DNA of 44,710 nt from Escherichia phage vB-Eco-KMB36: the sequence record OR525703.1; one strand, given 5' to 3'. A program made the position numbers and the translations under genes. Shown piece by piece: positions 2,784 to 36,914 of the stretch; position 1 is the first letter of the stretch, and every line of letters begins with the position of its first letter. Under the pieces are notes generated by a model that was not told where the DNA came from, searched no databases, and saw only the letters and a program-made list of their open reading frames with translations.

Positions 2784-4754
2784 ATGCTATTAACTTTAGC
2801 GCCACAGGGTTCATCTATGAGCTTACTTACATCTCTAATCAGCCACCAGATATGGCTGCAACGCACTGCATCCGGTGAGGTGAAAGACCTCGCGCCGTTC
2901 ATTAAGGAGATGCGGGACGAAATAAAACGGCAGGTGCTGTTATTCGGCGACGACGGGCGAAGCACCGCGCGACTGAATAAACTGTTACGCGACCTTGAAG
3001 AAGCACTTACCGCGCTTACCGGTGACTGGCGGACAAAGCTGACGGAAGACCTTAAGGAGCTTGCAGCGTATGAGGCTGAGTGGAATGTGAAGACACTCAC
3101 GGCTAACGTTAATGCGGAATTTGTTACCCCGACCGCTGAACAGGTGTGGTCCGCCGCCGAGTTTCAGCCATTATCATTAAGCGACAAGCCAGTTGACTTC
3201 ACTAAGCTGATGTCGGGCTGGGGGGAAACAGAAGTCGCGCGCCTTGTAACAGGCGTTAAGATGGGCTTTGTACAAGGCCAGACAACACGGCAGATTGTTA
3301 AGAATGTTGTTGGTGCTGGTGGTTTGGCGGACATTTCAGAACGTAACGCGGCTACTGTAATCCGCACCGCGCTGTCTCATGTATCCAACGAGGCCCGTAA
3401 CGAGACGTACCGCCAGAACGACGACATCATCGAGAAGTACGAGTGGGTGTCGACGCTGGACAGCCGTACCAGTACAACGTGTTTCACGGCTGAAACAGAA
3501 TTAGCGCCCATCGCGGGGATGGACGCGGTAATGCGCGGACTCTATTCAGGAAAAATCCTTACCATCGAACTTTCCAACGGCGAGAAGTTCAGTGGCACCC
3601 CGAAACACCCTGTACTCACGCAATACGGATGGACTCCGCTTGATGAACTCGACCCAACTAAGCATGTCTTGTATACCACTGTTGACAAAGTGACTGTGCT
3701 CGAAACAGTGAAGAACATAAACATGCCAGCCAGAGCGGATTATATTTTTAATACGCTCGCTGATTTCCCCATCAGGAAAATGGTAAGCACGAGTCCCGCG
3801 GCAACAGATTTCTATGGCGATGGAGTGGGACTCAATGGCAAAATCGACATTGTACGGGCCGATTGCAAACTGCGGAACTACGTCCACGCCAGCGGAATTA
3901 AACAATTCAAAAGCGAGGGTTTCAGTCTTATTCATAGCGCCGCTTTGCTGTCGGACGATAGCTCTGGCGATTTTCTCCTCCGGGGTGAATGTCCTGTGAG
4001 TGTGCCCGCGCTTAGCGAGGCCAAGTGTTTTGACCATAGAATAGAAAACTGTTTTGCTTACTTGGGTCCTTCTTATGCACTCAATAGGCGGGACGCCGGA
4101 CTCGAACAATTCTATAGCCCTTTTTTGATTCAAAATGGTGTCGTTAGAAACCCAACCACGGGGTCGATCATGCATGAGTCCGAGCTTCTTGAGAAATGTT
4201 GTTACCGTGGTGGTAGTGACGCCGTAATTCTTGGCTATGATGCTGGCGGGAGTGCCATCTCGGTACAAAGAACAAATATCATCCGCATAAGCGTCGAGTT
4301 TAGAACGTGCCATGTTTATACCCTCTCTAGTAGTCAAGGATATTATACAGCAGGTAGTGCGATAGTCAAGAATTGCAGGGCCAGAGACGGAATGACGTGG
4401 GAAATCGGTAAAGGACCGATGCCCCCGGCCCATTTTGGGTGCAGAAGTACTACCGCACCAGTAATCAGTTCCGAGTTCGACTTCCTCGATAAAGGCGCGA
4501 AACGCGCAGCTAAGGGCGCAGAAGGTGGTACCCAGGTAAGCGCAGACACCACCTATTACGAGTTCCTTAAACAACAACCGGCATGGTTTCAGGATGAAGC
4601 ATTAGGGCCGGTTCGCGGTAAGATTTTCCGTAACAGCGGTATATCGCCGGAAGAGTTTCGCGTAATATCTGTAGATGGTTTCGGGAATCCGCTGACGCTT
4701 AAGCAGATGGCGGAACTCGATAAACGTGTTGCTGATTATCTGAAAGAGGATTAA
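2784..4754 (+). CDS. head morphogenesis protein (SPP1 gp7 / Mu F-like) containing an in-frame intein
   Basis: Extein motifs DSRTSTT...CRARDGMTWEIGKGPMPPAHFGCRS match the Mu F/gp7 signature once residues 233-530 are removed; alternative start ATG 2817. Confidence 0.7.
   Translation: MLLTLAPQGSSMSLLTSLISHQIWLQRTASGEVKDLAPFIKEMRDEIKRQVLLFGDDGRSTARLNKLLRDLEEALTALTGDWRTKLTEDLKELAAYEAEWNVKTLTANVNAEFVTPTAEQVWSAAEFQPLSLSDKPVDFTKLMSGWGETEVARLVTGVKMGFVQGQTTRQIVKNVVGAGGLADISERNAATVIRTALSHVSNEARNETYRQNDDIIEKYEWVSTLDSRTSTTCFTAETELAPIAGMDAVMRGLYSGKILTIELSNGEKFSGTPKHPVLTQYGWTPLDELDPTKHVLYTTVDKVTVLETVKNINMPARADYIFNTLADFPIRKMVSTSPAATDFYGDGVGLNGKIDIVRADCKLRNYVHASGIKQFKSEGFSLIHSAALLSDDSSGDFLLRGECPVSVPALSEAKCFDHRIENCFAYLGPSYALNRRDAGLEQFYSPFLIQNGVVRNPTTGSIMHESELLEKCCYRGGSDAVILGYDAGGSAISVQRTNIIRISVEFRTCHVYTLSSSQGYYTAGSAIVKNCRARDGMTWEIGKGPMPPAHFGCRSTTAPVISSEFDFLDKGAKRAAKGAEGGTQVSADTTYYEFLKQQPAWFQDEALGPVRGKIFRNSGISPEEFRVISVDGFGNPLTLKQMAELDKRVADYLKED
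3480..4373 (+). mobile_element. intein (Hint domain, about 298 aa) in head morphogenesis protein
   Basis: Starts CFTAETEL, block B GTPKHPVLTQYGW, C-terminal VYTLSSSQGYYTAGSAIVKN followed by Cys+1; penultimate Lys instead of His. Confidence 0.6.
3546..4313 (-). CDS. putative homing endonuclease (tandem HTH + Vsr/DUF559-like nuclease) encoded antisense inside the intein
   Basis: 256-aa ORF from ATG at 4313 with upstream GAGAGGG; HTH-like TPASIIAKNYGVTTTTVTTFLKK and VSKTVFYSMVKTLGL; nuclease-like PYNVDFAIESHSIAIEI and ERIKNIIRSGWHVYVL; lies entirely within intein 3480..4373. Confidence 0.45.
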   Translation of the reverse strand: MARSKLDAYADDICSLYRDGTPASIIAKNYGVTTTTVTTFLKKLGLMHDRPRGWVSNDTILNQKRAIELFESGVPPIECIRRTQVSKTVFYSMVKTLGLAKRGHTHRTFTPEEKIARAIVRQQSGAMNKTETLAFELFNSAGVDVVPQFAIGPYNVDFAIESHSIAIEICCRGTRAYHFPDGEISERIKNIIRSGWHVYVLHCFEHSHFVNSGIQDMLSWVEFIKRSPSVLREYRVFRGATELLAVGKFDGKDFS

Positions 4755-5218: not shown

Positions 5219-5241
5219 GAGGCCCCGAAAGGGGCTTTTTT
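5219..5241 (+). terminator. rho-independent terminator
   Basis: GGCCCCGAAAGGGGC hairpin followed by TTTTTT. Confidence 0.7.
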
Positions 5242-5305
5242 AATGTCTGTGATTATTCCAGTTATTCCGCTCAATTGTAAATGTTGGAATAAACTATTCG
5301 AATAG

Positions 5306-5334
5306 TTGACTTTTCACTAAAAATGTGCTAAGCT
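5306..5334 (+). promoter_or_regulatory. sigma70-like promoter (copy 1 of repeated element)
   Basis: TTGACT, 17-nt spacer, TGcTAAGCT extended -10; CTATTCGAATAG palindrome abuts the -35. Confidence 0.5.
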
Positions 5335-5340
5335 CCACCT

Positions 5341-5541
5341 GAGCTTGTGAAGTATGAACAAGCGACCGCGGCGCGGGCAGGTAACGGAGCGGGACGTAAG
5401 TCCTGAGTGTAGTTACGCTGACGCGTTCGGAAGGGCCATACTCTATTGCTTGTGTAAAAAGTAACTGGTTTACTGAGATTACGCCGTTTCTATGTTTAAA
5501 TGATAAGGACTAGCGCCCCGCTTTATGGCGGGGCTTTACTT
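5341..5541 (+). ncRNA. candidate small RNA of about 200 nt, paralog A
   Basis: No ORF; bounded by the promoter and a GCCCCG/CGGGGC hairpin plus U-tract at 5513..5541; conserved 5-prime hairpin GCTTGT..ACAAGC and box TTCGGAAGGGCCATA shared with the copy at 36997..37210. Confidence 0.35.
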
Positions 5542-5558
5542 ATCGAGAAAGGAGAAAC

Positions 5559-5945
5559 ATGAATCTTAAAGCAACTGTCGTAGCGGGCGCATGTTTCATA
5601 ATCCTGGCTTACGCACACGGCATCTACCAGTATCGCATCGGCTGGAACGAAGGCCGGGCGAATCTCGTTTCGCAGCAACAGCAGAAAGCACAGGCTGAGT
5701 TAGCGAAGAAAACACAACGGCAGCAGCAGGATGAATCAAAGGCCGCGGCAGCTGACAACGAAGGCAAGACGAAATCAGAGGTGATTACCCGTGAAGTCGT
5801 TAAGTACATTAAAACGCCTGGTCGCAGCGTGTGCACTTTCGACGATGCTCGCGTCCTGCTCAAGTCCCGCGCCGTCGCAAACGCCAATTCCATCCCCGGA
5901 TACGACGATGATGCAGCCTCCGTGCAAACTGGCGCCGCCAAGTAG
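5559..5945 (+). CDS. Rz-like i-spanin
   Basis: N-terminal transmembrane segment VVAGACFIILAYA then Q/A/K-rich coiled-coil region; Rz1-like ORF embedded in +1 frame. Confidence 0.55.
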   Translation: MNLKATVVAGACFIILAYAHGIYQYRIGWNEGRANLVSQQQQKAQAELAKKTQRQQQDESKAAAADNEGKTKSEVITREVVKYIKTPGRSVCTFDDARVLLKSRAVANANSIPGYDDDAASVQTGAAK

Positions 5946-6054: not shown

Positions 6055-6136
6055 TTGCCTTGTATGTTGGAATAATTTATTCTTGACATGTAAATCCGGG
6101 AGGCCCGGATTCCAACGTCCAGGGGACATACTGACT

Positions 6137-6838
6137 ATGAATCGTTTTTTACGCTATCCGTTCCAGGAAGAAGCTGGGGCTGAAGATAAATCTGGTGGCG
6201 GTGACGCGCCGAAAATGTTCACAGCCGAAGAAGTTCAGGCGCTGATTGAGAAAGAAGTTGCCGGACTTAAGGCTAACCAGGAAGCATTGCTGGCAGAGAA
6301 GAAAGAAGCCGCTCGCAAAGCAAAAGAGGCTGAAGAAGAACGGCAGCGCGCACACCAGGAGGCGTTAAAAGCCGCCGGTAAGATGGACGAGTTCGAAAAG
6401 ACTATTCGTAGCCAGTATGACCCGGTGTTAGCCGAGAAAGATGGTCGCATCTCCAAAATGGCGGAGCGCATCCTCGGCAGCGAACGTAAGGCAGTGTTAG
6501 GCTCTTTCGCGGGTGACTTTATTACCCCGGAAGCAGTAGACATTCTTGCACCGTTCGTTAAGACTGAGTTCGAAGGCGATGACGTGGTTACTAAGTTTGT
6601 CGGTGCAGATGGCAACGTAATCACGACTGACCCGGAACAGTTCCGCAAATACCTGCGCGAACACAAAGCGTTTTCGCATTTGATTAAAGCAAATGCAGCT
6701 TCCGGCGGCGGGGCTTCCGGTGGCAAAGGCGGCGGGGCCGCACCAGCGTTTAAAGACATGAGTGAAGCGGAGCGTTTAGCTCTGTATAAATCGAACCCTG
6801 CCGAATTTGAACGGCAACTTAAAGCCCTGAGGAAATAA
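6137..6838 (+). CDS. scaffolding protein
   Basis: Charged coiled-coil-rich ORF immediately upstream of major capsid gene; ATG 6137 preferred over TTG 6083. Confidence 0.55.
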   Translation: MNRFLRYPFQEEAGAEDKSGGGDAPKMFTAEEVQALIEKEVAGLKANQEALLAEKKEAARKAKEAEEERQRAHQEALKAAGKMDEFEKTIRSQYDPVLAEKDGRISKMAERILGSERKAVLGSFAGDFITPEAVDILAPFVKTEFEGDDVVTKFVGADGNVITTDPEQFRKYLREHKAFSHLIKANAASGGGASGGKGGGAAPAFKDMSEAERLALYKSNPAEFERQLKALRK

Positions 6839-6840: not shown

Positions 6841-7890
6841 ATGGCAATTACCACTATCGGCGATATCGTAACTGGCAACATCCCGGTCCTGGCGTCTTAT
6901 ATGACAGAGGACCCGGTAGAAAAAACCGCGTTCTTCCAGTCCGGTATTCTGACCCCGACTCCGTACGCCGCAGAGATTGCTCGCGGTTCGTCCAACGTCG
7001 CCAACATTCCTTTCTGGAAAGCGATCGATACCTCTATCGAGCCGAACTACTCGAACGATGTGTATCAGGACATCGCTACCCCGCGTAATGTGCAGACTGG
7101 TGAGATGATGGCGCGCGTTGCGTACCTGAACGAAGGTTTCGGTCAGGCGGACCTGACCGTTGAACTCACCAGCCAGAATCCGCTGCAATCCGTAGCATCC
7201 CGTCTTGATAACTTCTGGCAGCGCCAGGCGCAACGCCGTCTGATCGCCACCGCGCTCGGCCTGTACAACGACAACGTAGCCGCTACCGATGCTTACCACG
7301 AGCGGAATGACATGGTAATCGACGTGTCCGCTACTCTGGGCTTCGACGCAGGTGCGTTCATCGACGCTACCCAGACTATGGGCGATGCTCTGATGGGCAA
7401 CGGTGGCGAGGTGCTGGGTGCTATCGCGATGCACAGCTTCGTTTATGCGCAGGCACGTAAGCAGCAGCTTATTGACCTCATCAAAGATGCTGACAACGAC
7501 ACCCTGTTCGCCACCTACCAGGGTTACCGCGTGATTGTTGACGACAGCATGACTGTAGTCGGTACCGGCACGAGCCGTAAGTTCATCTCCATCATCTTCG
7601 GCAACGGCGCTATCGGTTACGGAGAAGGTAACCCGACCAATCCGCTGGCATATGAGCGCGAAGAGTCTCGCGGTAACGGTGGCGGTGTAGAAACCCTGTG
7701 GACCCGTAAGACCTGGTTGCTGCACCCGCTGGGCTACAGCTTCACCAGCGCGGTAATCACTGGCAACGGTACCGAGACGGTCGCACGCTCCGCTTCCTGG
7801 CAGGACCTGGCGAACGCTTCCAACTGGAACCGTGTGGTTGACCGTAAGCATGTACCGATTGCCTTCCTGGTAACTGGTGTCGGTGCTTAA
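6841..7890 (+). CDS. major capsid protein
   Basis: 349-aa ORF downstream of scaffold and followed by strong terminator; size and position typical. Confidence 0.75.
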   Translation: MAITTIGDIVTGNIPVLASYMTEDPVEKTAFFQSGILTPTPYAAEIARGSSNVANIPFWKAIDTSIEPNYSNDVYQDIATPRNVQTGEMMARVAYLNEGFGQADLTVELTSQNPLQSVASRLDNFWQRQAQRRLIATALGLYNDNVAATDAYHERNDMVIDVSATLGFDAGAFIDATQTMGDALMGNGGEVLGAIAMHSFVYAQARKQQLIDLIKDADNDTLFATYQGYRVIVDDSMTVVGTGTSRKFISIIFGNGAIGYGEGNPTNPLAYEREESRGNGGGVETLWTRKTWLLHPLGYSFTSAVITGNGTETVARSASWQDLANASNWNRVVDRKHVPIAFLVTGVGA

Positions 7891-7905: not shown

Positions 7906-7930
7906 GAGAGGGACTTCGGTCCCTCTTTTC
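7906..7930 (+). terminator. rho-independent terminator
   Basis: GAGAGGGAC-TTCG-GTCCCTCT hairpin followed by TTTC. Confidence 0.65.
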
Positions 7931-24634: not shown

Positions 24635-26065
24635 TCATTTCTTACCTCGTCTCTTCATGTAATTAAGCAACTCTTCCTGTACTGATTTTTTCTCGTCGGT
24701 GCGCGCGGCAACAACCTCGTCCAGCGTGTCTTTAGCGACTATGTGATATAGGAACACTGGTCGCTCGTGGCCTGCCTGCTTCTGGCGTGTTGGACCTATG
24801 CGCTCGACAACCTGCAAATAGTGTTCAAGGTTCCAGCCTTGTGAGATAAACGCCAGATGATGCCCGCCATCCTGTAAATTTAAACCATGCCCGGCTGACG
24901 CAGGGTGAACGCATAAGATTTCGATTTCACCACGGTTCCACGCGTCCATCTGCTTATTGCCCTTCTCACCTTTGGCAAATGCCTGTGCTTGTGGGAATCG
25001 CTTAAGAATACGCTCCAGTTCGTGCTTGAACTGATAAGCCACCAGTAACGGCGCGCCCTGTAACTCCTCAACAATCGACTCAAGAGCATCAAGTTTCGTG
25101 TCGTGCACTTTCTCCCAGTCTTTGGTCGCTTCGCCATCCGTCCCTGACACATACACGGCACCAGATGCAATCTGCAAACACTTCGACGTCTTCGCCGCTG
25201 CGTTAGCTGCTTCAACTTCTCCGCTCTCCAGTTCTGCAAATAGCTTCTCCTCCATATCTATGTACGCCTGACGCGCTTTCTTCGGCAGGTCGATTTCAAC
25301 CGGTACGATAATCGGCGCTTCACACCCGAACCACTCGGCAGGGTCGATGGTCAGGCTGATGTCTTTCATCTTCTGATGAATTTCATTATCTGCACCCGGT
25401 CGCGCATGATATTCACGCGCCATAGCCGACTTACCTTTCTGTACCGAGTTAAACCAGCGGTCTGTGAATGCCGTATACGAAGAGCCGAGGCGCTCGCCAG
25501 CGTCGATAAACCAGTTCTGGCCCCACAGGTCTTTGAGGCCGTTAGGCGACGGTGTGCCCGTCAGATTGATGAAACGCTTAACTTTACCGAACGCCACTTT
25601 GCTGAGCGCCTTTGCCCGCTTGCTACCACCTGAACGGCTGCGGAATGATTTTAGTTTCGTGCTTTCATCGGCGACAATAACCGTAAAAGGCCAGTCGTCT
25701 TTGCCGTAGTAGTCAATCAGCCACTCAATAACTTCGTAGTTAGTGCACACCACGTTAGCGTCTGACTCCAGCGCCGCGATGCGGCGCTTCTCCGAACCAG
25801 TTGCATCTACGACACGCAGACAAGGGAATTGCCATTTCTCTTGTTCAGCGGGCCACGTACCGGACGCAACACGTAACGGGGCAAGGATTAACACGCGGTC
25901 CTCTTCCGTAAGCTGCCCGTTGCGGAACAGGCGGTTGAGCACCCACATAGTGGAGGAGGTTTTACCTCCCCCCATTCCGCACCAGATATTACAGCGCGGG
26001 TGTTGCAGCATGAACGAAGTCATGAGCTTCTGGTACTCTCGACGGATAAATTTAGACATGTTCAA
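24635..26065 (-). CDS. DNA helicase (superfamily 2-like)
   Basis: Walker A GMGGGKT and DExx-like VIVADESTK. Confidence 0.7.
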   Translation of the reverse strand: MNMSKFIRREYQKLMTSFMLQHPRCNIWCGMGGGKTSSTMWVLNRLFRNGQLTEEDRVLILAPLRVASGTWPAEQEKWQFPCLRVVDATGSEKRRIAALESDANVVCTNYEVIEWLIDYYGKDDWPFTVIVADESTKLKSFRSRSGGSKRAKALSKVAFGKVKRFINLTGTPSPNGLKDLWGQNWFIDAGERLGSSYTAFTDRWFNSVQKGKSAMAREYHARPGADNEIHQKMKDISLTIDPAEWFGCEAPIIVPVEIDLPKKARQAYIDMEEKLFAELESGEVEAANAAAKTSKCLQIASGAVYVSGTDGEATKDWEKVHDTKLDALESIVEELQGAPLLVAYQFKHELERILKRFPQAQAFAKGEKGNKQMDAWNRGEIEILCVHPASAGHGLNLQDGGHHLAFISQGWNLEHYLQVVERIGPTRQKQAGHERPVFLYHIVAKDTLDEVVAARTDEKKSVQEELLNYMKRRGKK

Positions 26066-26256
26066 TCCTTAACGTAGAGTACCAGCTCTTTACGCCCGAA
26101 CGCCGTAACGTTACCCGTTACATCTTCGATAACCAGTTTACCGTTCGACTCGACGAACACCGTATCAACGGCAACAGGACGACGGGTCTTAACGCTGAAA
26201 ATCATGTCGCCTGGTACGATGTCACGTGCTGGCTTGCGGTCATATTCGTGTTTCAT
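26062..26256 (-). CDS. hypothetical protein
   Basis: 64-aa ORF downstream of a minus-strand promoter. Confidence 0.4.
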   Translation of the reverse strand: MKHEYDRKPARDIVPGDMIFSVKTRRPVAVDTVFVESNGKLVIEDVTGNVTAFGRKELVLYVKD

Positions 26257-26286
26257 TTCTCAATTCCTTATATTGTTGGTGTGTGA

Positions 26287-26574
26287 TTAACTATAATAGC
26301 TCGCTATTAGGTCGTCAACCTGTTTAAACGAACCAACGACAAAAACATTTGCACCACGTTTACGCATCCGCTCGTGCTCTCGTAACTGGTGCGGGTCCGG
26401 CTTCGTGTTTTCGTCTTTCTTAACCTCGACGAACCAGATGATGCCACCAGGGAGAATTACCAGCAGGTCAGGAGCTCCCACTCTATTTTCGTACGACAAT
26501 TTGCGTACAAGGCCCCCCATGGCCTCGAATCGCTCTTTTGCGTATTTCTGTACGCGGCCCTCTTTAGTCGCCAT
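26287..26574 (-). CDS. VRR-NUC-like nuclease
   Basis: PDLLVILPGG...WFVEVK pattern. Confidence 0.55.
   Translation of the reverse strand: MATKEGRVQKYAKERFEAMGGLVRKLSYENRVGAPDLLVILPGGIIWFVEVKKDENTKPDPHQLREHERMRKRGANVFVVGSFKQVDDLIASYYS
26290..26318 (-). promoter_or_regulatory. sigma70-like promoter with AATAG-N4-CTATT palindrome
   Basis: Minus strand reads TTGACG, 17 nt, TATAGT; palindrome at 26295..26308. Confidence 0.5.
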
Positions 26575-27070
26575 GGTTGCAAAACTCTCCGTGCAGTTTT
26601 GCCCTAAATTCTCTCAGCGATTCCTCTGCTTCATTTAGGTTCTGGAAATACCCAATCTGGTAGCGTGTACCTTTAAAAGCAACTCGAGCGCACCAAGCAT
26701 TATGAGGCTTACTCCAGTTAACCCCTTTCACGCCGCTGGTGTTCGTAACTGGGGTCTTGCGGTTATGGTTCTGTTGAAATTCATCCGCAAGCCGTAGGTT
26801 ACAAATCCGGTTATCGTCCCGTATGCCGTTAATATGGTCTATTTGCTTAGTTGGCATTTCTCCGTATACCCACCACCACGCCAGCCTGTGTGCGCGGTAA
26901 TACACCCTATTCCATCCTAACAATATGTACCCTTTACGGTCCTTGTAGGTAACAACATCTCCGGGTTTCGCGGTCTGGCATCTGTGCTTGACCCATTCAA
27001 ATATCCCGGTATCCGGGTCGTATGACAGAAAATTTTTTATGTCGTCACTTGGTGCTTTCATAATACGCAC
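26564..27070 (-). CDS. HNH homing endonuclease with AP2 domain
   Basis: QIDHINGIRDDNRICNL HNH core, AP2-like SGVKGVNWSKPHNAWCARV. Confidence 0.7.
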   Translation of the reverse strand: MRIMKAPSDDIKNFLSYDPDTGIFEWVKHRCQTAKPGDVVTYKDRKGYILLGWNRVYYRAHRLAWWWVYGEMPTKQIDHINGIRDDNRICNLRLADEFQQNHNRKTPVTNTSGVKGVNWSKPHNAWCARVAFKGTRYQIGYFQNLNEAEESLREFRAKLHGEFCNHGD

Positions 27071-27143
27071 CCCTCACGTTTCGTATGCTCAATCCCGCAG
27101 CGCGGGCAGATTCGGCAGTCTTCTTCGTAGAACCCGTAAATTT

Positions 27144-27275
27144 TCATTCCAGCACCCACAGATAAATTGCGATGAACATACCTAATACGGCTACCATCAT
27201 GCCGTATTGACCCTCATGACAGTAGACACCGGCGGCGAATCCCGCCAGTACCGCGATAATCAGTTTACTTAGCAT
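27144..27275 (-). CDS. hypothetical small membrane protein
   Basis: 43-codon hydrophobic ORF whose ATG overlaps the polymerase stop. Confidence 0.3.
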   Translation of the reverse strand: MLSKLIIAVLAGFAAGVYCHEGQYGMMVAVLGMFIAIYLWVLE

Positions 27276-30200
27276 AGCGTTTTAACTCCGCACCTTCCGC
27301 TACAAGAGGGAAACCCTCCGCCCACTCAGGCAGCGAACACATTAATTTTTCCAGTTCAGCCACCGTGTACTCTGGGGCATCTGGAGTTTCGCACACCAAT
27401 TCATCGTGTACCGAAAGCACGATGGGGTACCCGCCGCCTTCAACGTTAATCATCGCATACGCAAGTAAATCACGGCACAGCGCCTGAACAATGTTTTCGC
27501 AGGCTTTACCGCCGTGGGTGTACAGGGTAGTCCATTGGCGGGTTAACTGGTTTTCCCCCTGATACTTGATTCGCACATTCGTGTTTACCCGTCCGTCTTC
27601 GTCCGTTTCCTTTGTTACACTAACGCCGATTCCCGGATACGAGAGGATGCGACCTGACGGCAACTCCATGCATAACCACCAACCAGGAACCTCCCTGCCG
27701 GATGAATCAAATTCTACAGTACGCCATATGCGGATAGCCCTTTCCCCATTCCTTCGCAAGTGTGCTCCCGCCCAAAATTCACGACCAGGATTACGCACAG
27801 CGGCTAAAATTCCTTCTTTAAGGTCACGCCAGAACGCTACTGTTTCCGGGTGTGACTCGCGCCACATACGCTTGATTGCGTCGCATGTGCGCCACACTTT
27901 CTTGTCCAGAATATACGATGGTCGGTCATCCTTCTCACCTGGATGCGGGGGGCGCTTGGCTTCCTGGATGCGCGCCCATTCATATCCTCTCGCGGTGGCC
28001 GACCAGATGTGGTCCGGGAATGTACCGTCCATTGTTTTTGCCATCTCAATAAGGTCAAGACCTAAGTTTTTAGCAAACTGAACGAACGCCCCGACGCCAC
28101 CCTCGTAGCCTAGTCCAAGCTCGCAGTTATGCGCCACAAGAAAGCCAGAGCCTGAGGCTATAAGAAAACGGTTGCCGTCTTCCACATCAATCAGGTCGTA
28201 CACCGGCTCGCAGTAGGTTAATTTCCCGCTCAAGTTCAGCAATGCGGGCAACGGCTGCATCATACTTTCGTTGAAGCTCGGGTATTTGCCGTCTGTTTCG
28301 GCAGTTTTCAGAACGGCTGACAAACCGAATGTTTCCAGGTTCGTAGTTACCGTCTGTGTCGATTCTATCCATTTCGAGGTTCGGGTCATCCCAGCCTTCC
28401 AGAGTTTGAACATATCTAAGAAAAGACCTTTTATCAGTCCTCCACTGGTCGAATACCGTGATGCCTCTTGCCCCATAGTTTTTATAACCCTTATCCCTGG
28501 GGCTTGTTGTTCGCGTGATCGCCGCGGACAGCCGGTTGAGTAATCGCGTTCTGTGCGCATCATCCGGCATTGCGTCTTCGTAGCAGAAATACTGTTTACG
28601 ATATTTTTTTGTTGCTTCAAGGGCGCAGCGGTTGCATTGAGTGGTTTTACCCGCTCTGACGTTGTCATAATAGACCCGCCCCGGCATCTCTCCGCAATCA
28701 CATTGGACGAGTAGTTGTCTTTGGCCTTGTCGTTTTGGTAACTCGCGCAGGATAACCAAGCGTCCATACCTCTCTCCAGGGCGAGGCCCATCATATATCT
28801 GTTTGAAGCGAGTTGCTTTGCCTGCTTCCAGGAATGCGCCAAGATTTTGTGGTCTTCGGTCATTAGCACCCCGTCCACATTTATTACCGGTTTCCACCCC
28901 ATAAGGTGCGCGCCTTTTGTATTCACCCATTTTTCACCGCTCCATACTTTATCTGTTGATGTAACCGCCATAATATCCTTAAATCCGCCATCGGTCAAAA
29001 CTTGGGTATGACGGTGAAGGCACGCTTTACCAATCTGGCGCAAGTCTTTACGTTCTTTCTTAATATAGTCGGGGTCCATGCCAAACATCTTACCTGCGGT
29101 TACGCAATAAATATCCAACCCGGCGCGGAAAGTATCAAGCGCGGTTTCTTCGCCTGCCAACCACGCAAGCCCACGACCCTCAACGTTAGAGTAATCGGCA
29201 ACAACAAACTTATGCCCCACTTCCGGTATGATGCAGCTACGTACCGTCGATGCCGTTAGCTTGGCTACATCAAAACGGCGGTGTGCCCGGCCTTTAAGTA
29301 ACGCTGAAATGCCTTTATCCAGTTCATCATCGTGATAGTACCCGCGCGCCAGGTTCTGCGGCTGGAAGCCTTTACCCGCCCATCGCAGGGTACGTTTTGC
29401 CCCGCCATACTGTAAGCACCCGCGACGACGATCGTCAGACGAGCGGCCTAACAGCAGTGGGTTATATTTCGTTGACGCAGTGGATGCCGCCCCGAGGCGC
29501 ATTTCTATAATCGCGCGGGCATCGTCCGGTAAATCATCGTCTGCCAGCAGGTCGTTAAGCGTCGACTTCTGCGCGTTATGGATTCGGTGTGCTGGTGCGA
29601 GTTCACGCAGAATAGGCAGAAAGTCCTTACCGGTAAGCGAGCCGCCGTATTTGCGTTGGGCTTCTTCCTGTAACTGCGCTTTGTGTTTTTCCACGGCTTC
29701 GATTGCGGCTTCCGCCAGTGCAACGTCGACCTTAAACCCGCGGTCATTGATTAATTGGTCCAGCTCCAGTACACGGTCCTCGAACTCGGAGTTACCCCAA
29801 CGCGGCAGCTTATGGAAGACTTCGCGCATCGCAGTGATGTCGCTCACGGCGTACTTAATGAACAGCGCCCACTCGTCCGGGTGTGTTTCTGCGGTGTAGC
29901 GGCGGATTTTGTAATTCTTCGGTGTCGGTTTAGAGAAACGCTGAATCAGCGCCTTGCCGCGTTTATCTTTCGCGTTGTCCGCAGACACGCCCAACACTTC
30001 GCACAGTGCATCAAGTGACCCCGGCAGCGCGTGGCGAAACGCCCAAATCATCGTATCAATGGTGTTGCTTACCGGAATATCAAAGCCCCAGCAGTGCTTC
30101 ATGATGAGCCTGTCGAACATTAAAAAGTTATGGCCCACGATTTTCATACGTCCACGCATAACATTACGGAGAGCAACGCGGAGGCTTATTGGCATTACTG

Positions 30201-30360
30201 GTTCGGAAGTGCAATCCCATACTTCTACAGGACCGTCATCAACGGCATATGTACAAATTATAACCTCGGTCGTTGGATGCTCCGCGTACGCGTACGACCC
30301 AACTTTCTTTAAGTCCGCTCCAGAGAATGTCTCAGTATCTAGGTACAATAAACTAGTCAT
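27265..30360 (-). CDS. DNA polymerase I (family A) interrupted by an intein
   Basis: Exo motif YLDTETFS, polymerase motif A VADYSNVEGRG, C-terminal VHDELV; 299-aa insertion between RQIGKA and CELGLGYEGG. Confidence 0.8.
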   Translation of the reverse strand: MTSLLYLDTETFSGADLKKVGSYAYAEHPTTEVIICTYAVDDGPVEVWDCTSEPVMPISLRVALRNVMRGRMKIVGHNFLMFDRLIMKHCWGFDIPVSNTIDTMIWAFRHALPGSLDALCEVLGVSADNAKDKRGKALIQRFSKPTPKNYKIRRYTAETHPDEWALFIKYAVSDITAMREVFHKLPRWGNSEFEDRVLELDQLINDRGFKVDVALAEAAIEAVEKHKAQLQEEAQRKYGGSLTGKDFLPILRELAPAHRIHNAQKSTLNDLLADDDLPDDARAIIEMRLGAASTASTKYNPLLLGRSSDDRRRGCLQYGGAKRTLRWAGKGFQPQNLARGYYHDDELDKGISALLKGRAHRRFDVAKLTASTVRSCIIPEVGHKFVVADYSNVEGRGLAWLAGEETALDTFRAGLDIYCVTAGKMFGMDPDYIKKERKDLRQIGKACLHRHTQVLTDGGFKDIMAVTSTDKVWSGEKWVNTKGAHLMGWKPVINVDGVLMTEDHKILAHSWKQAKQLASNRYMMGLALERGMDAWLSCASYQNDKAKDNYSSNVIAERCRGGSIMTTSERVKPLNATAAPLKQQKNIVNSISATKTQCRMMRTERDYSTGCPRRSREQQAPGIRVIKTMGQEASRYSTSGGLIKGLFLDMFKLWKAGMTRTSKWIESTQTVTTNLETFGLSAVLKTAETDGKYPSFNESMMQPLPALLNLSGKLTYCEPVYDLIDVEDGNRFLIASGSGFLVAHNCELGLGYEGGVGAFVQFAKNLGLDLIEMAKTMDGTFPDHIWSATARGYEWARIQEAKRPPHPGEKDDRPSYILDKKVWRTCDAIKRMWRESHPETVAFWRDLKEGILAAVRNPGREFWAGAHLRRNGERAIRIWRTVEFDSSGREVPGWWLCMELPSGRILSYPGIGVSVTKETDEDGRVNTNVRIKYQGENQLTRQWTTLYTHGGKACENIVQALCRDLLAYAMINVEGGGYPIVLSVHDELVCETPDAPEYTVAELEKLMCSLPEWAEGFPLVAEGAELKRYAK
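28126..29022 (-). mobile_element. intein (Hint domain, 299 aa) in DNA polymerase
   Basis: CLHRHTQVLTDGGFKDI, TEDHKILAHS, VYDLIDVEDGNRFLIASGSGFLVAHN then Cys+1; boundaries checked on nucleotides. Confidence 0.65.
28187..28930 (-). CDS. HNH endonuclease gene overlapping the intein in the +1 frame
   Basis: Zinc ribbon CDCG...CNRC and HNH core DRIDTDGNYEPGNIRFVSRSENCRNRR; own GGAG RBS and ATG; frame offset from polymerase verified on nucleotides. Confidence 0.55.
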   Translation of the reverse strand: MGEYKRRAPYGVETGNKCGRGANDRRPQNLGAFLEAGKATRFKQIYDGPRPGERYGRLVILRELPKRQGQRQLLVQCDCGEMPGRVYYDNVRAGKTTQCNRCALEATKKYRKQYFCYEDAMPDDAHRTRLLNRLSAAITRTTSPRDKGYKNYGARGITVFDQWRTDKRSFLRYVQTLEGWDDPNLEMDRIDTDGNYEPGNIRFVSRSENCRNRRQIPELQRKYDAAVARIAELEREINLLRAGVRPD

Positions 30361-30826
30361 GGCAATAAAATTCCTTGTGCAGTTTTTCTCTTAATTTCTT
30401 TACGGCGCTTTCTGCTTCTTCAAGAGTTCCGTAGCTACCAGCGTTATAACTTTTGTAGTTAAAATGTACACGCCCGTAAAATCGGTTGCCGTTTTTAACT
30501 ACTCCCTTAACTCCGGTTCTAGCTCCCTTATTTTTAGCGTTTCGCACATTATCAGCGGTTGTTGCTTTCCTTAGGTTAGAAATCCTATTGTCTAACCTGT
30601 CACGGTTTATATGGTCAAGAGGCCCCTCGGGCCATTCACCGTACTCGAAAAACCAAGCAAGCCTGTGGGCCATGTAATATCTACCCATATAAGGTATGCG
30701 CCAGTATCCACTACTATTGATGCACCCAGCGATGTCTCCGGGTTTTCCTCGTCTGTACGTAGGTTGTATCCATGTGAATATTCCGGTTTCTCGGTTATAA
30801 CTAAGAAAATCTTTTATATGTTCCAT
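30353..30826 (-). CDS. HNH homing endonuclease with AP2 domain
   Basis: LDHINRDRLDNRISNL HNH core, AP2-like TGVKGVVKNGNRFYGRV; start at ATG 30826 after GGAG; stop overlaps polymerase start. Confidence 0.7.
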   Translation of the reverse strand: MEHIKDFLSYNRETGIFTWIQPTYRRGKPGDIAGCINSSGYWRIPYMGRYYMAHRLAWFFEYGEWPEGPLDHINRDRLDNRISNLRKATTADNVRNAKNKGARTGVKGVVKNGNRFYGRVHFNYKSYNAGSYGTLEEAESAVKKLREKLHKEFYCHD

Positions 30827-30834
30827 TCTGACTC

Positions 30835-30859
30835 CGGTAAAAAGGCCCAATGAAGGGCC
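30835..30859 (-). terminator. rho-independent terminator
   Basis: On minus strand GGCCCTTCATTGGGCC followed by TTTTT, immediately upstream of the HNH RBS. Confidence 0.6.
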
Positions 30860-30880
30860 TTAGTTAAATTGATTCAGATA

Positions 30881-31507
30881 TTAGCGACGGCGACGTTCGC
30901 GGCGTGGTGCTTCATCTTCTTCGTCATCCTCAAGGTCATTGACGCTTGCAGCGACTTTAGAACCACCGAACGCTTTACCTTCGCCTACGTATTTAATCGC
31001 CAGCAGGTTAACCCCGAGAACTTTATATTTCTGGCTGAACCAGATTTCGACGCTTACGTTAGCGACGCAGCCGCTGTAAACTTGTTCACCTTCAATCTGT
31101 TCGCCGTCTACATTGAAGTCCTGCTCTACCTGAGTCTCACCTTTTTTAGAGGTAACAATCAGCGGCTGTTTCTGTGCCTTCGCTTTGAAGTAGAAGCCCT
31201 CCGGGAAGTCTTCAAACGGATTGTCACGCTCAGCAATGTCTTTAATCGCACATTTATCCATGTGCTTACCTTCGCCGTAGTTAGACTTCATCCACTTCTC
31301 AGCGGCGGCTGCACCTAACGCTTCTTCAACTACAGCGTAAACGGTGTCGTAGAGCGCGTCGATTTGCGCGTGGTCGGACGGCAGGATAATAGTCGCGCTG
31401 TACTGACCTTTAGTGATTGAACCATCATCATTTTCACGGTCTTTTTCGCGTTCGAATACGTTAACCCAAGCAGTGTTTACTTTACGCAGATTTAATTTCA
31501 GCCCCAT
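30881..31507 (-). CDS. ssDNA-binding protein-like (acidic C-terminal tail)
   Basis: 208 aa with C-terminal DLEDDEEDE tail; adjacent to exonuclease gene. Confidence 0.4.
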   Translation of the reverse strand: MGLKLNLRKVNTAWVNVFEREKDRENDDGSITKGQYSATIILPSDHAQIDALYDTVYAVVEEALGAAAAEKWMKSNYGEGKHMDKCAIKDIAERDNPFEDFPEGFYFKAKAQKQPLIVTSKKGETQVEQDFNVDGEQIEGEQVYSGCVANVSVEIWFSQKYKVLGVNLLAIKYVGEGKAFGGSKVAASVNDLEDDEEDEAPRRERRRR

Positions 31508-31562
31508 TTCTCGATTCCTCAGTTTTCAGTTTACTCCGGGAGCTGCCCGGCCAGTGATTAGA

Positions 31563-31591
31563 ACTATAATAGCTAACTATTCAGGTGTCAA
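31563..31591 (-). promoter_or_regulatory. sigma70-like promoter with AATAG-N4-CTATT palindrome
   Basis: Minus strand reads TTGACA, 17 nt, TATAGT; palindrome at 31568..31581. Confidence 0.55.
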
Positions 31592-31595
31592 CACT

Positions 31596-32852
31596 TTATT
31601 CCAAATCTTCTTCACTAACCTGATTCCACTCAGGCCGTTTGTCGTCTGCCGTTGTGATGCATGGGGCACCTGGCTTACGTGTGATGAAGTCTTTCAGTTC
31701 TTCTTCCGGTATCACTTTAACAGCTTCGGTTGGCGTCATGAGCACTTCTTTAGTCAGCTTGTCGCCGTAGAGTTCTGTTACTTTCTCCGCGTCTTTCCAC
31801 GCACGATTGCCCATCTTACCTTCAACCAGCTTGTACCCAGGAACTTTCTTACCGGAATGCAACGCGGCAGCCATAGCTTTCTCAACCTTATCGATGTGCT
31901 GGCGCAACAGCGGCAGCTTCTCATACTCAGCTACGAGTTGCTCCGGCGTAAGTTCCAGTGCAAAGTCGTCTTCCAGTTCTTCCACCAGTACGGAATTAAC
32001 CGTCTTTGTACGCGCGGCGCATTGTTCTGAGAACCGGCACCACTGGCAACCATCGACCGACGGCCTGAAGTCCGACGCTTTCAGGTTCTTCTTACCGCGG
32101 AAATATGCATCTAACGCTAACAGGGCACGTTTCTGTGCGAACTTAGCGAACAGTTCCAGACCTTCGACCGAGATGTCCCACTCTGCCGCATCTCCCGCGT
32201 ACGGCTGGAAGATGACCAGGCGCACTACTGTGATGTTATACCGTCTCTTGAGTCGGCGATAAACACCGAGAGCGTAAAGCATAAGCTGCTTGTTTTCTTT
32301 CGCTTCGACACGATGTCGCCCGGTTTTAAGGTCACCGATAATTAGCATGTGCTCGTCGGTGTTAGCCAGTTCCTGAACGGCAACAAGGTCAGCGGTTCCG
32401 AACGTCTCGACACCTTCGTAACCCGGATGCAATACCTCAGTAAGATTGACACGCATTTCCAGCTTGGCGTAAGTCGCTACATCGATAACAGCTTTGCAGT
32501 AGTCGGTGTACTTGCGCACCTGCTCAATCATGTCAGCCGTAATCAGGACAGCGCCTTTCATCGGGCTAATTAGTGCCTTAATCTGGCCTTTGCCTTCATC
32601 CAGCACATAAGCGCCAACTTCGCGCTCTAACGGCAGCGCAGTGCCTCTGATGTACTGATTTAAATGGACCTCTGCTATGGTGTGCATGGCTGTACCTAAT
32701 ACCGCGGCTTTACCGGACGTGTTAGGGATATCTTTTTCACAGGCCAGCGATGCGGCGCAGGTTAACCACTTTTTAGCACCTGACGGCGACAGTAAGGCGT
32801 GCACATCGTTATTGCCGCCGCGTTCCTTTAAAATCATACTCTGTTCTCCCAC
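31596..32852 (-). CDS. PD-(D/E)XK exonuclease (Cas4/RecB-like, Cys cluster)
   Basis: IIGDLKTGR nuclease motif and C-terminal CQWCRFSEQC cluster. Confidence 0.6.
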   Translation of the reverse strand: MGEQSMILKERGGNNDVHALLSPSGAKKWLTCAASLACEKDIPNTSGKAAVLGTAMHTIAEVHLNQYIRGTALPLEREVGAYVLDEGKGQIKALISPMKGAVLITADMIEQVRKYTDYCKAVIDVATYAKLEMRVNLTEVLHPGYEGVETFGTADLVAVQELANTDEHMLIIGDLKTGRHRVEAKENKQLMLYALGVYRRLKRRYNITVVRLVIFQPYAGDAAEWDISVEGLELFAKFAQKRALLALDAYFRGKKNLKASDFRPSVDGCQWCRFSEQCAARTKTVNSVLVEELEDDFALELTPEQLVAEYEKLPLLRQHIDKVEKAMAAALHSGKKVPGYKLVEGKMGNRAWKDAEKVTELYGDKLTKEVLMTPTEAVKVIPEEELKDFITRKPGAPCITTADDKRPEWNQVSEEDLE

Positions 32853-33106
32853 TGGTCAATTAAATGCCTGGTCTGGTGCTGGCAGCGCATGGCCCACCCA
32901 TACATCGACTCGAAGACATAAAAGTCAGGCTTGGCGAAAGTCGCGCGTTTAATCTGCGACACGTGACGGCCTATATATTTAGGCCGCGGTACTTTGCCTA
33001 AGTACGCCATCTCTTCCATCTGGTGCGCACCGGACGGCGCACGCAACAGCCACAACGCCTCTGTGCCATCCCGCCTGTCAACGGCGCGGTAGAGTTGGTA
33101 AATCAT
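32834..33106 (-). CDS. hypothetical protein
   Basis: 90-aa ORF. Confidence 0.4.
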   Translation of the reverse strand: MIYQLYRAVDRRDGTEALWLLRAPSGAHQMEEMAYLGKVPRPKYIGRHVSQIKRATFAKPDFYVFESMYGWAMRCQHQTRHLIDQWENRV

Positions 33107-33149
33107 AATTCCGACCCTCAGTTAAAGCGGCCCTCGGGCCGCAGGATAG

Positions 33150-33650
33150 TTATTCTTCTTCGAAATACTTGTTCTTGATTGCTGTCAGTCGTTCCAGGTA
33201 TTCAGCCAGGTCTTCGTCTTTAATCGCGGCAATCTTCATCTTCTTACCGGTGAACTCTTCAAGCAGTTCATCGGAATCATCACACGCGGCGTCGCTCGGA
33301 CCTTCGTTAATCGCATCGTCGATAGCCTGAATCTGGTCACGCAGAGACTGGTAATCGACTTCTTCTTTCTCTTCTTCCGGTTCTGGCGTTGGTTCCTCTA
33401 CTTTAGCTTTACGCGGCTTGCGTTTAGGCTTCTCTTCTTCTGCTGGTTTAGTGTCAACGACGTCTTCACCTTCGACCGGGATTTCTTTTGTTTCTTCTTT
33501 AATACTTTCAGAGAACTGCTCAATTTTATGAGCGGCTACTGCGGCAGCCTCTTTGGCAGTAGTTGGCGCGAACTGTTTCGCGCTGTTCGCAGCAATCAGT
33601 TCATGTGCAACTACGAAACGTTCCAGTAATTTTAAGAATTGTTCTAACAT
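33150..33650 (-). CDS. acidic early protein
   Basis: 166 aa, strongly acidic with one basic patch KPKRKPRKAK; first gene downstream of the early promoter at 33682..33710. Confidence 0.45.
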   Translation of the reverse strand: MLEQFLKLLERFVVAHELIAANSAKQFAPTTAKEAAAVAAHKIEQFSESIKEETKEIPVEGEDVVDTKPAEEEKPKRKPRKAKVEEPTPEPEEEKEEVDYQSLRDQIQAIDDAINEGPSDAACDDSDELLEEFTGKKMKIAAIKDEDLAEYLERLTAIKNKYFEEE

Positions 33651-33681
33651 TTGTTTCTCTCCTCTCGTTTGGTATGGGCTA

Positions 33682-33710
33682 ACTATAATAGCGAACTATT
33701 CACATGTCAA
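33682..33710 (-). promoter_or_regulatory. sigma70-like promoter with AATAG-N4-CTATT palindrome
   Basis: Minus strand reads TTGACA, 17 nt, TATAGT; palindrome at 33687..33700. Confidence 0.55.
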
Positions 33711-33744
33711 TGGGCTTTTCTAAAATAATTAATATGGTACTATT
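33699..33744 (+). promoter_or_regulatory. candidate divergent promoter and second operator-like site for the XRE-family gene
   Basis: TTCACA, 16 nt, TAAAAT; degenerate palindrome AATAT-GGTA-CTATT at 33731..33744. Confidence 0.35.
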
Positions 33745-33774
33745 CACATATCAACTGACTAAGGAGTAATTGAC

Positions 33775-33990
33775 ATGCAACCATCTGAACTAGGAATCCG
33801 TGTAGAACAGCGCCGTAAAGAGCTCGGTATTTCCCAGCGCCGTCTGGCTGTCCTGACCGGCGTTTCCCAGGGTGCAATTAACCAGCTTGCGCTTGGAGTA
33901 ACTCAGGACGTCCGCCCGGCGACGCTGTTTAAACTGGCGGAAGTGCTACAAGTAGACGCTAAGTGGCTGGCGTTCGGTGAAGGGGCTTAA
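33775..33990 (+). CDS. XRE-family HTH transcriptional regulator (Cro/CI-like)
   Basis: ELGISQRRLAVLTGVSQGAINQL helix-turn-helix; divergent from the early operon. Confidence 0.65.
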   Translation: MQPSELGIRVEQRRKELGISQRRLAVLTGVSQGAINQLALGVTQDVRPATLFKLAEVLQVDAKWLAFGEGA

Positions 33991-34005
33991 AGCCCCTTTC
34001 TTTTT
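33981..34005 (+). terminator. rho-independent terminator
   Basis: AGGGGCTTAAAGCCCCT followed by TTCTTTTT. Confidence 0.6.
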
Positions 34006-34007
34006 AC

Positions 34008-36269: not shown

Positions 36270-36394
36270 TTCTTTTTCTCCGCACGTTCTAAGGCTTCCT
36301 GCATACGGCGCATTGCGCGGTTCATCTTTACCGGTGCGAAGAAATCAGCGCCGTGTTTCTGGCGGCGTAGCTGTGGAACTATTAACTTTGTCAT
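36266..36394 (-). CDS. hypothetical small protein
   Basis: 42-codon ORF with AGGA RBS, overlapping primase start. Confidence 0.3.
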   Translation of the reverse strand: MTKLIVPQLRRQKHGADFFAPVKMNRAMRRMQEALERAEKKK

Positions 36395-36462
36395 TGTATA
36401 ATCCTTGTGCTTACTTTGATGATTTGTACTTTAGCCCCGACGTTCTGGCGTTGGGGTTTCTT

Positions 36463-36675
36463 TTATTTACAACCAGAAAACCACGTGTGCTCGGAATCAT
36501 AGAAGCGGCATTTACTTAACACGTCTACCGGCATCTTAATAATTCGCGTCGGTTCCGACAAATGATTAGGTTTACATATTTCTGCATAGAATCCGCTGTC
36601 GGTAATTTCTGACGCAAACTTAAACCAGTATTTAACTTTACCGTTTTCAAAGTAACAACCCATACGCCCAATCAT
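36463..36675 (-). CDS. hypothetical protein
   Basis: 70-aa ORF. Confidence 0.4.
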   Translation of the reverse strand: MIGRMGCYFENGKVKYWFKFASEITDSGFYAEICKPNHLSEPTRIIKMPVDVLSKCRFYDSEHTWFSGCK

Positions 36676-36854
36676 TTCACATTCTCCTTAATCCACGCTT
36701 CAACTTTATTACGGTCGAATGTACCAGGTAAACGGCGACCCATAACTTTAATACAACAGTCGGGGAATTTGCCGCTGCGTAACCAGTTATTAATTGTCTG
36801 ACGTGTCACCCCAATACGCTCGGCTACTTCATTCTGTGTCATGTACTGTTGCAT
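36672..36854 (-). CDS. AlpA-like HTH DNA-binding protein
   Basis: MTQNEVAERIGVTRQTINNWLRSGKFP; ATG 36854 with AGGAG RBS. Confidence 0.55.
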   Translation of the reverse strand: MQQYMTQNEVAERIGVTRQTINNWLRSGKFPDCCIKVMGRRLPGTFDRNKVEAWIKENVK

Positions 36855-36885
36855 TTTTATATCTCCTGTTTGTTTGGTGAAACCG

Positions 36886-36914
36886 AGTATAGGATAGCGG
36901 GGATGTAAAAGCAA
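36886..36914 (-). promoter_or_regulatory. candidate sigma70-like promoter of the early operon
   Basis: Minus strand reads TTGCTT, 17 nt, TATACT. Confidence 0.4.

Follow-up and report, generated by a model that had tools for sequence, protein, structure and literature searches.

A conserved, folded non-coding RNA preceding the lysis and capsid genes in Kagunaviruses and their relatives

The put elements of phage HK022 are cis-acting RNAs that make E. coli RNA polymerase resistant to terminators and to pausing, in a manner that depends on the zinc-binding domain of β′, each forming two adjacent stem-loops at the start of its transcript and each standing behind a σ70 promoter that heads a long operon. 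Lambdoid phages reach their late genes from the σ70 promoter PR′ through the ~200-nt untranslated 6S leader and the hairpin terminator tR′, with lysis and then head and tail genes following, and their Q protein acts at a site in DNA. Phage T7 carries a 5′ stem-loop on its highly expressed φ10 capsid message and RNase III sites such as R0.3 and R1.1, in which the duplex is broken by asymmetric internal loops. AlpA- and Q-type antiterminators load at a DNA site between the −35 and −10 elements, as at the alpBCDE lysis genes of P. aeruginosa (PMC7969949). Here we compare with these systems a locus at positions 5306–5541 of Escherichia phage vB-Eco-KMB36 (sequence record OR525703.1; the whole stretch of 44,710 nt was analysed and is called the window below). 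An original prediction, made from the letters alone, had described this locus as a candidate small RNA running from a promoter to a terminator, with a paralog at 36962. We find that it is a non-coding, strongly conserved and folded RNA that heads the lysis and capsid genes and lies outside the catalogued RNA families, and that it probably belongs to a functional family of structured leader RNAs located in cis. The parts of the two copies, A and B, are as follows.

5306–5334, + strand: promoter P_A, an extended −10 σ70 promoter with −35 TTGACT (5306–5311), a 17-nt spacer, TG (5326–5327) and TAAGCT (5329–5334)
5343–5363, + strand: P1, a 5′-terminal hairpin of 6 bp with a 9-nt loop (GCTTGT 5343–5348, loop 5349–5357, ACAAGC 5358–5363), present in the minimum-free-energy fold
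5366–5430, + strand: P2, a long irregular hairpin, from base to tip CCG:CGG, CGCG:CGCG, CAG:CUG, GUAAC:GUUAC, an internal loop and an apical hairpin
5431–5448, + strand: conserved tail AAGGGCCAUAcUCUAUUG, predicted to be unpaired
5449–5514, + strand: A+U-rich 3′ half including block 2 (CUGAGAUUACGCCGU, 5473–5487), conservation 0.97–0.98
5515–5543, + strand: closing G+C-rich hairpin (GCCCCGC/GCGGGGC, 5515–5534) followed by an interrupted U-tract (TTTACTTAT), flagged as terminator-like
5551–5554, + strand: GGAG ribosome-binding site of the i-spanin gene (ATG 5559)
36962–36990, + strand: promoter P_B, the same as P_A over all 29 nt
36999–37106, + strand: P1 (36999–37019), P2 (37022–37088) and tail (37089–37106) of copy B, with a covariance-model score of 111.8 bits

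Promoter, P1, P2 and tail are thus shared by copy A (5306–5541) and copy B (36962 to about 37215). The repeat finder aligns the copies over one 70-nt block at 96% identity and one 33-nt block at 91%, which agrees with the near-identity of their 5′ parts claimed at the outset. The window contains exactly two copies of the 29-nt promoter and exactly two of a 33-nt piece from the 5′ end of the transcribed region, where shuffled sequences lead one to expect 0.00 occurrences. Between the shared blocks, many substitutions and a 2-nt indel set the copies apart, yet copy B still folds, with CGA:UCG and the apical hairpin CACGU-CUAG-ACGUG in its P2 interior.

The window is a Kagunavirus (Guernseyvirinae) genome, and BLAST of the element region retrieves about 180 phage records at 90–99% identity, comprising Kagunaviruses (K1G-like E. 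coli siphophages) and close Salmonella relatives. Copy A is present in these ~180 records, 115 of which share its 115-nt core at 99% identity or more; both copies occur in only ~40 of the copy-A genomes (224 places in 182 records in all), and K1G has copy A only. Loci of relatives were fetched via the neighbouring capsid gene and searched with a covariance model built from the Kagunavirus-type copies. A diverged version stands at the same position in Jerseyvirus (SE2, Jersey, wksl3; 269 records, 33–40 bits, E values of 1e-7 to 1e-9), and a third version in Cornellvirus FSL SP-031, Enterobacter phage phiEap-2, Salmonella phage pink and Hafnia phage TS33; a 14-mer scan for further copies of this Cornellvirus type gave matches that were mostly chance. 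The Cornellvirus-like phages Shemara, VSiA, TS6, PSDA-2 and Pantoea AH01 keep the 3′ half of the leader and have other hairpins in the 5′ half, and Klebsiella relatives have an unrelated long leader before the spanin gene. All compared phages have an untranslated region of 200–400 nt before the spanin genes, and the homologues consistently lie directly upstream of the i-spanin gene and its ribosome-binding site. The three types have a common plan: promoter, P1, P2, tail, an A+U-rich stretch and, ~25 nt upstream of the start codon of the spanin gene, a G+C-rich hairpin. Among 36 Kagunavirus-type loci, mean pairwise identity is 0.95–0.99 across non-coding positions 5251–5580 versus 0.80–0.94 in the spanin gene, and this high conservation spans the whole of 5251–5580, beyond the folded part.

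Compensatory change supports an RNA fold. In the model-derived alignment of 33 sequences, standard pairs account for 96.0% of cells versus 84.6 ± 0.7% in column shuffles (none of 500 shuffles reached as high a value), 11 of the 25 pairs have changed on both sides, and slid partners pair in only 29–43% of cases. A hand-curated structural alignment of 40 distinct sequences, which was built around the structure and is therefore biased towards it, gives 93% paired versus 69.5%, with compensatory double changes at nine pairs within the Kagunavirus type alone. The P1 stem is wholly replaced in sequence between types (GCUUGU/ACAAGC in Kagunavirus, UACGC/GCGUA in Jerseyvirus, CGUUC/GAACG in Cornellvirus) with 100% of cells paired. 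Five P2 subtypes occur in the Kagunavirus type, with apical stems GGGAC/GUCCU, GGUGC/GCACU, CACGU/ACGUG, GUGCC/GGCAC or CACG/CGUG, middle helices GUAAC/GUUAC, GGAAC/GUUCC or CGA/UCG, and an outer pair of the lower helix that is C:G, U:A or A:U. Since several G:U pairs are invariant, the RNA can be assigned to the + strand. For Kagunavirus-type sequences alone the model fold is also the minimum-free-energy structure (z-scores −1.7 to −3.6), and for P2 the minimum-free-energy and centroid folds agree. These results bear out the suggestion that the locus belongs to a structured RNA family whose ends are conserved and whose interior varies but can still pair, and the promoter (TTGACT-17-TGcTAAGCT), P1 hairpin, box, apical hairpin and closing hairpin on which that suggestion was built all lie where they had been placed.

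Other parts are held constant in sequence: the P2 base (ACCGCGG ... UUCGG), the tail, and the 3′ strand of the asymmetric, conserved internal loop (GGAGC / GAGUGUA) below the apical hairpin GGGAC-GUAA-GUCCU (5391–5404). Together the tail and the P2 base are the most sequence-constrained part across genera. The tail of copies A and B reads CGG-AAGGGCCAUAnUCUAUUG, the box noted originally (TTCGGAAGGGCCATA) occupies 5426–5440, and in all three types AAGGG(C/U)C... follows directly after P2; tail variants are not accompanied by a compensating change elsewhere. The P2 duplex is ~22 bp long in the Kagunavirus type and 16–18 bp in the other two. P1 begins 2 nt past the predicted transcription start near G5341 (that is, at about +3) and is separated from P2 by 0–2 nt. 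Several further structural ideas were rejected. A pseudoknot between the P1 loop (GUAUG) and the box (CAUAn) fails on an uncompensated variable box position and on a P1 loop that differs freely between subtypes; a K-turn or sarcin-ricin internal loop fails on a consensus unmet in some subtypes, as checked by eye; and GGA sites of the CsrA type are no more frequent than chance.

The locus matches no catalogued RNA. A covariance-model search of the whole window against Rfam 15, the check proposed with the prediction, gave no match at gathering thresholds, and in E-value mode the best scores for the two copies were 9–16 bits, versus gathering scores of 35–70, and fell on the terminator or 3′ part rather than on the fold. 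ARAGORN finds no tRNA or tmRNA genes in the window, and a literature search, including one with the exact sequence, returned no paper describing the element. The idea that the fold is not an RNA, and that the region is a decayed or very small protein gene or a DNA site such as an operator or origin, is highly improbable. A 36-aa open reading frame (ORF) at 5354–5464 is annotated as a hypothetical protein in several GenBank records, and the copy B tail contains the near-palindrome ATAGTCTAT. However, the 36-aa frame is broken by the 2-nt indel in copy B and has no ATG in the P1 of Jerseyvirus or Cornellvirus, so that the region is, as claimed, without a credible ORF; substitutions track base-pairing rather than codons, and the G:U pairs point to a strand-specific constraint. 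The tail was also rejected as a DNA operator, since the palindrome AATAG-N4-CTATT found elsewhere in the phage has a different spacing.

The 3′ end was where the prediction needed revision. The closing hairpin is present in all three types, even where it lacks terminating ability, and in the Kagunavirus type its stem is kept by compensatory changes (CCCCG/CGGGG, CCCAG/CUGGG, CCCUG/CAGGG). The U-tract that was to complete it as a terminator is interrupted in the Kagunavirus type (UUUACUUAU) and absent from Jerseyvirus leaders (UUAGCGUAUAAAG; the hairpin is followed by UUAGCGUAU) and Cornellvirus leaders (UGUUACGAGG), and so a discrete 3′ end is not conserved across the homologues. The placement directly before the ribosome-binding site of an Rz-like gene was correct: the GGAG of the i-spanin gene lies only 16 nt after the hairpin, and for this reason every spanin, scaffold and capsid message must cross the hairpin. 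This interval has no room for a promoter. Hence the non-coding, structured RNA of the original proposal stands but the discrete promoter-to-terminator transcript does not. Because the element is always upstream of i-spanin, because no second promoter fits, because the terminator is not conserved and because 5251–5580 is conserved throughout, we read it as a 5′ leader; from its sequence context, leader A is best read as the first ~215 nt of a spanin-scaffold-capsid-tail transcript. In the Kagunavirus type the closing hairpin is probably a partial intrinsic terminator by its sequence, and some termination at 5515–5534 is plausible; transcripts stopping at about 5541 would yield a ~200-nt RNA, which may be at most a by-product. 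A terminator/antiterminator switch between the tail and this hairpin was rejected, as the two can form 4 bp at most and the polarity of the hairpin arms is reversed in the Cornellvirus type. Block 2 of the A+U-rich 3′ half is common to copy B and to the Jerseyvirus and Cornellvirus leaders.

As to function, the best explanation as a whole, which we put forward tentatively, is a cis-acting leader that aids polymerase read-through. Host RNA polymerase would start at P_A (at about 5341), just past the strong terminator of the preceding unit, and transcribe leader A, then the genes for spanins, scaffold, capsid and tail. A minority of Kagunaviruses, the window phage among them, have a duplicate of the promoter and the first ~110 nt, at 36962 in the window, where copy B would head a rightward unit of small ORFs, two holins, endolysin and packaging genes leading into terminase and portal. 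P1 would shield the 5′ end against degradation, and the P2 base and tail would act on the transcribing polymerase, either directly or via a host factor, so that polymerase from P_A or P_B could pass the leader hairpins (5515–5534 and 37177–37193) and later operon terminators. Terminators on the + strand inside these units are found at 7906–7927 (after the capsid gene), 38347–38368 and 2758–2773, and no promoter-like site was found in the 3 kb after 7906–7927. The two adjacent stem-loops from +3, the position of both copies at the head of long lysis and morphogenesis units, and the terminator-like hairpin placed in the Kagunavirus type between leader and first gene, with no room for a promoter, are all consistent with read-through. 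PHROGs and Pfam scans of ~30 ORFs in 36.4–43.8 kb, many of them of unknown function, gave no Q-, N- or AlpA-family protein. A comparison of six genomes showed no ORF whose presence follows that of the module (a 62-aa ORF at 42584–42772 was rejected as such a gene, having diverged homologues in phages without the module), a result that fits action without a dedicated phage protein.

A close parallel is HK022 put. Like the leader, put forms adjacent stem-loops at the transcript start (putL pairs from nucleotide 3, P1 from +3), occurs as two paralogous copies per genome, each behind a σ70 promoter heading a long operon, and has no detectable phage antiterminator protein. Unlike put, the leader fold is ~90–110 nt rather than ~70 nt long, its P1 is short and unconserved in sequence, a conserved single-stranded tail follows P2, the Guernseyvirinae host phage is lytic and non-lambdoid, most relatives lack the second copy, and antitermination is only a candidate role. 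Model R1 does not match the put sequences read from HK022; a 13-bit match at 36889–36960 of that genome covers a P1-like hairpin over the PR′ promoter, involves P1 only, and was judged to be chance. With the lambdoid PR′-6S-tR′ arrangement the Kagunavirus type shares the σ70 promoter, untranslated leader of ~200 nt, hairpin terminator and order of lysis before head and tail genes, and in both a short terminated RNA is expected as a by-product. It differs in that the ORF scans turned up no Q homologue, the early transcribed region has no −10-like pause element conserved across types, the constraint falls on RNA structure rather than on a DNA site, and the terminator is not kept in Jerseyvirus or Cornellvirus. 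A conserved σ70-dependent pause element was considered on the strength of a TACGCT repeated at about +1 in the Jerseyvirus type, and rejected for want of a counterpart in the Cornellvirus type or Kagunavirus subtype D. AlpA systems likewise have a leader hairpin upstream of lysis genes; the P_A and P_B spacers are identical in the window, and an early HTH_17 (excisionase-like) protein is encoded beside copy B. However, the spacer is unconserved between types and between copies A and B of other Kagunaviruses, and the HTH protein has no Phage_AlpA match among the best 25 of its 32 Pfam matches. T7 leaders resemble this one in the 5′-terminal hairpin on a late capsid message and in the long irregular hairpin with an asymmetric internal loop within untranslated RNA (cleavage here is only putative), but the invariant unpaired tail and the linkage of leader to promoter have no T7 counterpart.

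Several points weigh against the read-through proposal. A literature search returned no transcript data for these phages, and neither sequence nor covariance model shows likeness to putL or putR. The rightward unit is expressed without the module in most Kagunaviruses, K1G for example, with the leader hairpin in place, and terminators after capsid genes are often partly read through without any antiterminator. A terminator scan of the Jerseyvirus and Cornellvirus leaders found no terminator-like site after the fold, which excludes passage through the leader hairpin as the conserved function. The structure itself is less secure outside the Kagunavirus type: for Jerseyvirus- and Cornellvirus-type sequences the model fold is not reached by energy alone, and the P2 base can be drawn either as CCG:CGG with a free tail or as GACC:GGYC closing a three-part junction, so that the Cornellvirus-type alignment and the modelled pairing of the P2 base are uncertain. 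Given the missing similarity to put, the unconserved leader terminator and the K1G-like phages that manage without the module, we regard terminator read-through as a possible but doubtful job for the leader, and consider it unlikely that P1, P2 and the tail constitute a protein-independent, put-like processive antiterminator RNA, unrelated to HK022 put in sequence, in strictly lytic siphophages.

Almost as likely as read-through is a role exerted only after transcription, without effect on the polymerase, in which the leader would govern stability, processing or translation; this too is possible rather than probable. P1 would block RNase E that depends on the 5′ end, P2 would be an RNase III-type site or the binding site of a protein controlling how much spanin, scaffold and capsid is made, and the hairpin before the ribosome-binding site would stabilise or tune the downstream message. 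A hairpin near the 5′ end is an arrangement that stabilises E. coli mRNAs, and in all three types one starts 2 nt from the predicted 5′ end; the ~22 bp of P2 are broken by asymmetric internal loops in the manner of T7 RNase III sites; the leader always precedes the same genes; and the closing hairpin persists even in types where it could not terminate. A pure stabiliser, however, has no need of unpaired sequence (CCGCGG, CGGAAGGGYC) that is invariant across genera, and leaves unexplained why the module has moved, together with its own peculiar promoter, to a second operon. The PHROGs and Pfam scans of the ~30 ORFs yielded no candidate RNA-binding protein.

The small RNA of the original prediction, taken as a stand-alone ~200-nt molecule that acts in trans on host or phage targets or sequesters a host protein, now seems improbable. 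Its attraction is that promoter, 5′ hairpin and a G+C-rich 3′ hairpin with a covarying stem before UUUACUUAU are all present in the Kagunavirus type, and that terminator-ended leaders can double as small RNAs, as StxS from the PR′ leader of Stx phage is reported to do (PMC7547250). Yet the Jerseyvirus and Cornellvirus homologues have no terminator-like site, the U-tract of copy B is poor, and the spanin genes have no promoter of their own, which makes read-through obligatory. The conserved box has no extended complementarity on either strand of the phage, and BLAST against 5,426 complete E. coli genomes gave no match on either strand, a result that also led us to reject host mimicry or a prophage origin. 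Very unlikely, in our estimate, is a riboswitch-like sensor whose P2 base-tail junction binds a metabolite, ion or tRNA, or senses temperature, to time lysis and late genes. Covarying helices around invariant junction nucleotides are typical of aptamers, but no Rfam family rises above noise, the fold has no conserved alternative pairing with the downstream hairpin or ribosome-binding site, the C-rich and G-rich arms of that hairpin swap polarity between types, and a lytic phage has no obvious reason to gate its capsid genes by ligand.

Kagunavirus and Jerseyvirus are among the most often isolated phages of E. coli and Salmonella, with more than 450 genome records and many candidates for therapy and biocontrol, and the most conserved non-coding stretch of their genomes is unannotated or mis-annotated as a 36-aa hypothetical protein. 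An RNA family supported by covariation gives a handle on how late genes are driven in a phage that encodes neither an RNA polymerase nor a recognisable Q or N. Should the RNA act on polymerase, it would be a rare new case of antitermination by RNA only and a compact promoter-leader part for engineering; should it prove put-like, it would represent a second, independently evolved class of nascent RNA that reprograms the E. coli and Salmonella polymerase, in a portable cassette with its own promoter. If it is a stabiliser only, it would still be a new family of Rfam grade and a correction to annotation.

The sequence upstream of the leader is conserved as well:

5251–5305, unstranded: upstream conserved region with TTATTCC (5253, 5262) and GGAATAA (5286) repeats and CTATTCGAATAG (5294); conservation 0.89–0.98 across the 36 Kagunavirus-type loci

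The promoter plan T[TAG]GACT-17-TGnTA[AC][GC]CT is kept in the Jerseyvirus and Cornellvirus versions, with a spacer whose sequence differs. Judged by sequence, the motifs in 5251–5305 are candidate regulator-binding sites of P_A. The TTATTCC/GGAATAA repeats number three upstream of P_A and at least five in Cornellvirus-type loci (L100 and L145), where they reach into the promoter spacer. A promoter-like site on the − strand (TTTACA-18-AATAAT with an upstream TG, 5281–5252) is directed away from P_A; it is kept in the Kagunavirus and Jerseyvirus types (locus L090, 2465–2436) and would run into the bidirectional-looking terminator at 5221–5243. Leaders like that of Klebsiella phage VLCpiS11a (loci L093, L096 and L108) have at least five copies of TTGCGAG, which resemble a distinct set of operator sites occupying the equivalent regulatory position.

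Gene order was taken from annotated relatives (Shashou and K1G) and the ORF lists of the window, and the features adjoining leader A are:

5221–5243, + strand: intrinsic terminator (GGCCCCGAAAGGGGC followed by T6) ending the preceding unit (terminase, portal, head morphogenesis, Ig-like); repeat family D1; an annotated terminator in phage Shashou
5559–5945 and 5791–6054, + strand: i-spanin and overlapping o-spanin genes, the first behind leader A (ORF list; Shashou and K1G annotation)
6083–6838 and 6841–7890, + strand: scaffold and major capsid protein genes, next after the spanins (same sources)

The + strand from 1 to 24281 encodes terminase, portal, the Mu F-like head-morphogenesis protein and the Ig-like protein, then element A, spanins, scaffold, capsid, and head-tail and tail genes. 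Replication genes occupy the − strand at 24635–36857, with a small HTH_17 gene last, and on the + strand from 37306 come numerous small ORFs together with genes for an HslV-like peptidase, two holins (41007, 41255) and endolysin (41562), followed by further small ORFs; on a circular map this rightward run carries on into terminase. The Mu F-like gene (2784–4754, + strand) encodes 656 aa in the window versus 358 aa in K1G. Its ~300-aa insertion has a weak Intein_splicing match (E 8e-4, below threshold) and is overlapped by an antisense 343-aa ORF (3546–4577, − strand) with weak HTH_7 and restriction-endonuclease-like matches; an intein or mobile insertion is possible. The holin region contains a 55-nt exact tandem duplication (41155–41264).

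Copy B occupies the divergent region that separates the HTH gene from the first small ORF, with these features:

37107–37305, + strand: 3′ part of leader B, with block 2 (CUGAUUUGCCGU), a (CACU)n run and a hairpin (37177–37193) with a poor U-tract, up to the first small ORF (ATG 37306)
37263–37291, − strand: promoter-like site TCGATA-17-TATATT with an AATAG-N4-CTATT palindrome, facing P_B

The 3′ part of leader B is kept in phages that have no P1-P2 module there, such as K1G, and the copy number of its (CACU)n run (37161–37176) varies between phages. The − strand site is convergent with P_B at a distance of ~300 bp, and an RNA started there and running leftward would cover all of leader B in antisense on its way to the HTH gene. 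Six copies of the palindrome AATAG-N4-CTATT are found in the window (14762, 26295, 31568, 33687, 37268 and 38633) versus 0.3 expected. Most of them overlap the −10 element of a σ70 promoter close to consensus (TTGACA-17-TATAGT class; repeat families D3 and D5), and a phage regulator of early and replication genes probably uses the palindrome as its operator. Comparison of sequences indicates that regulatory cassettes around the B locus are shuffled between phages. In K1G the B locus (36778–36805) has, instead of P1-P2, an inverted 27-nt exact copy of the copy-A leader hairpin (5511–5537 in the window), which would end a leftward transcript to give an antisense RNA of ~280 nt.

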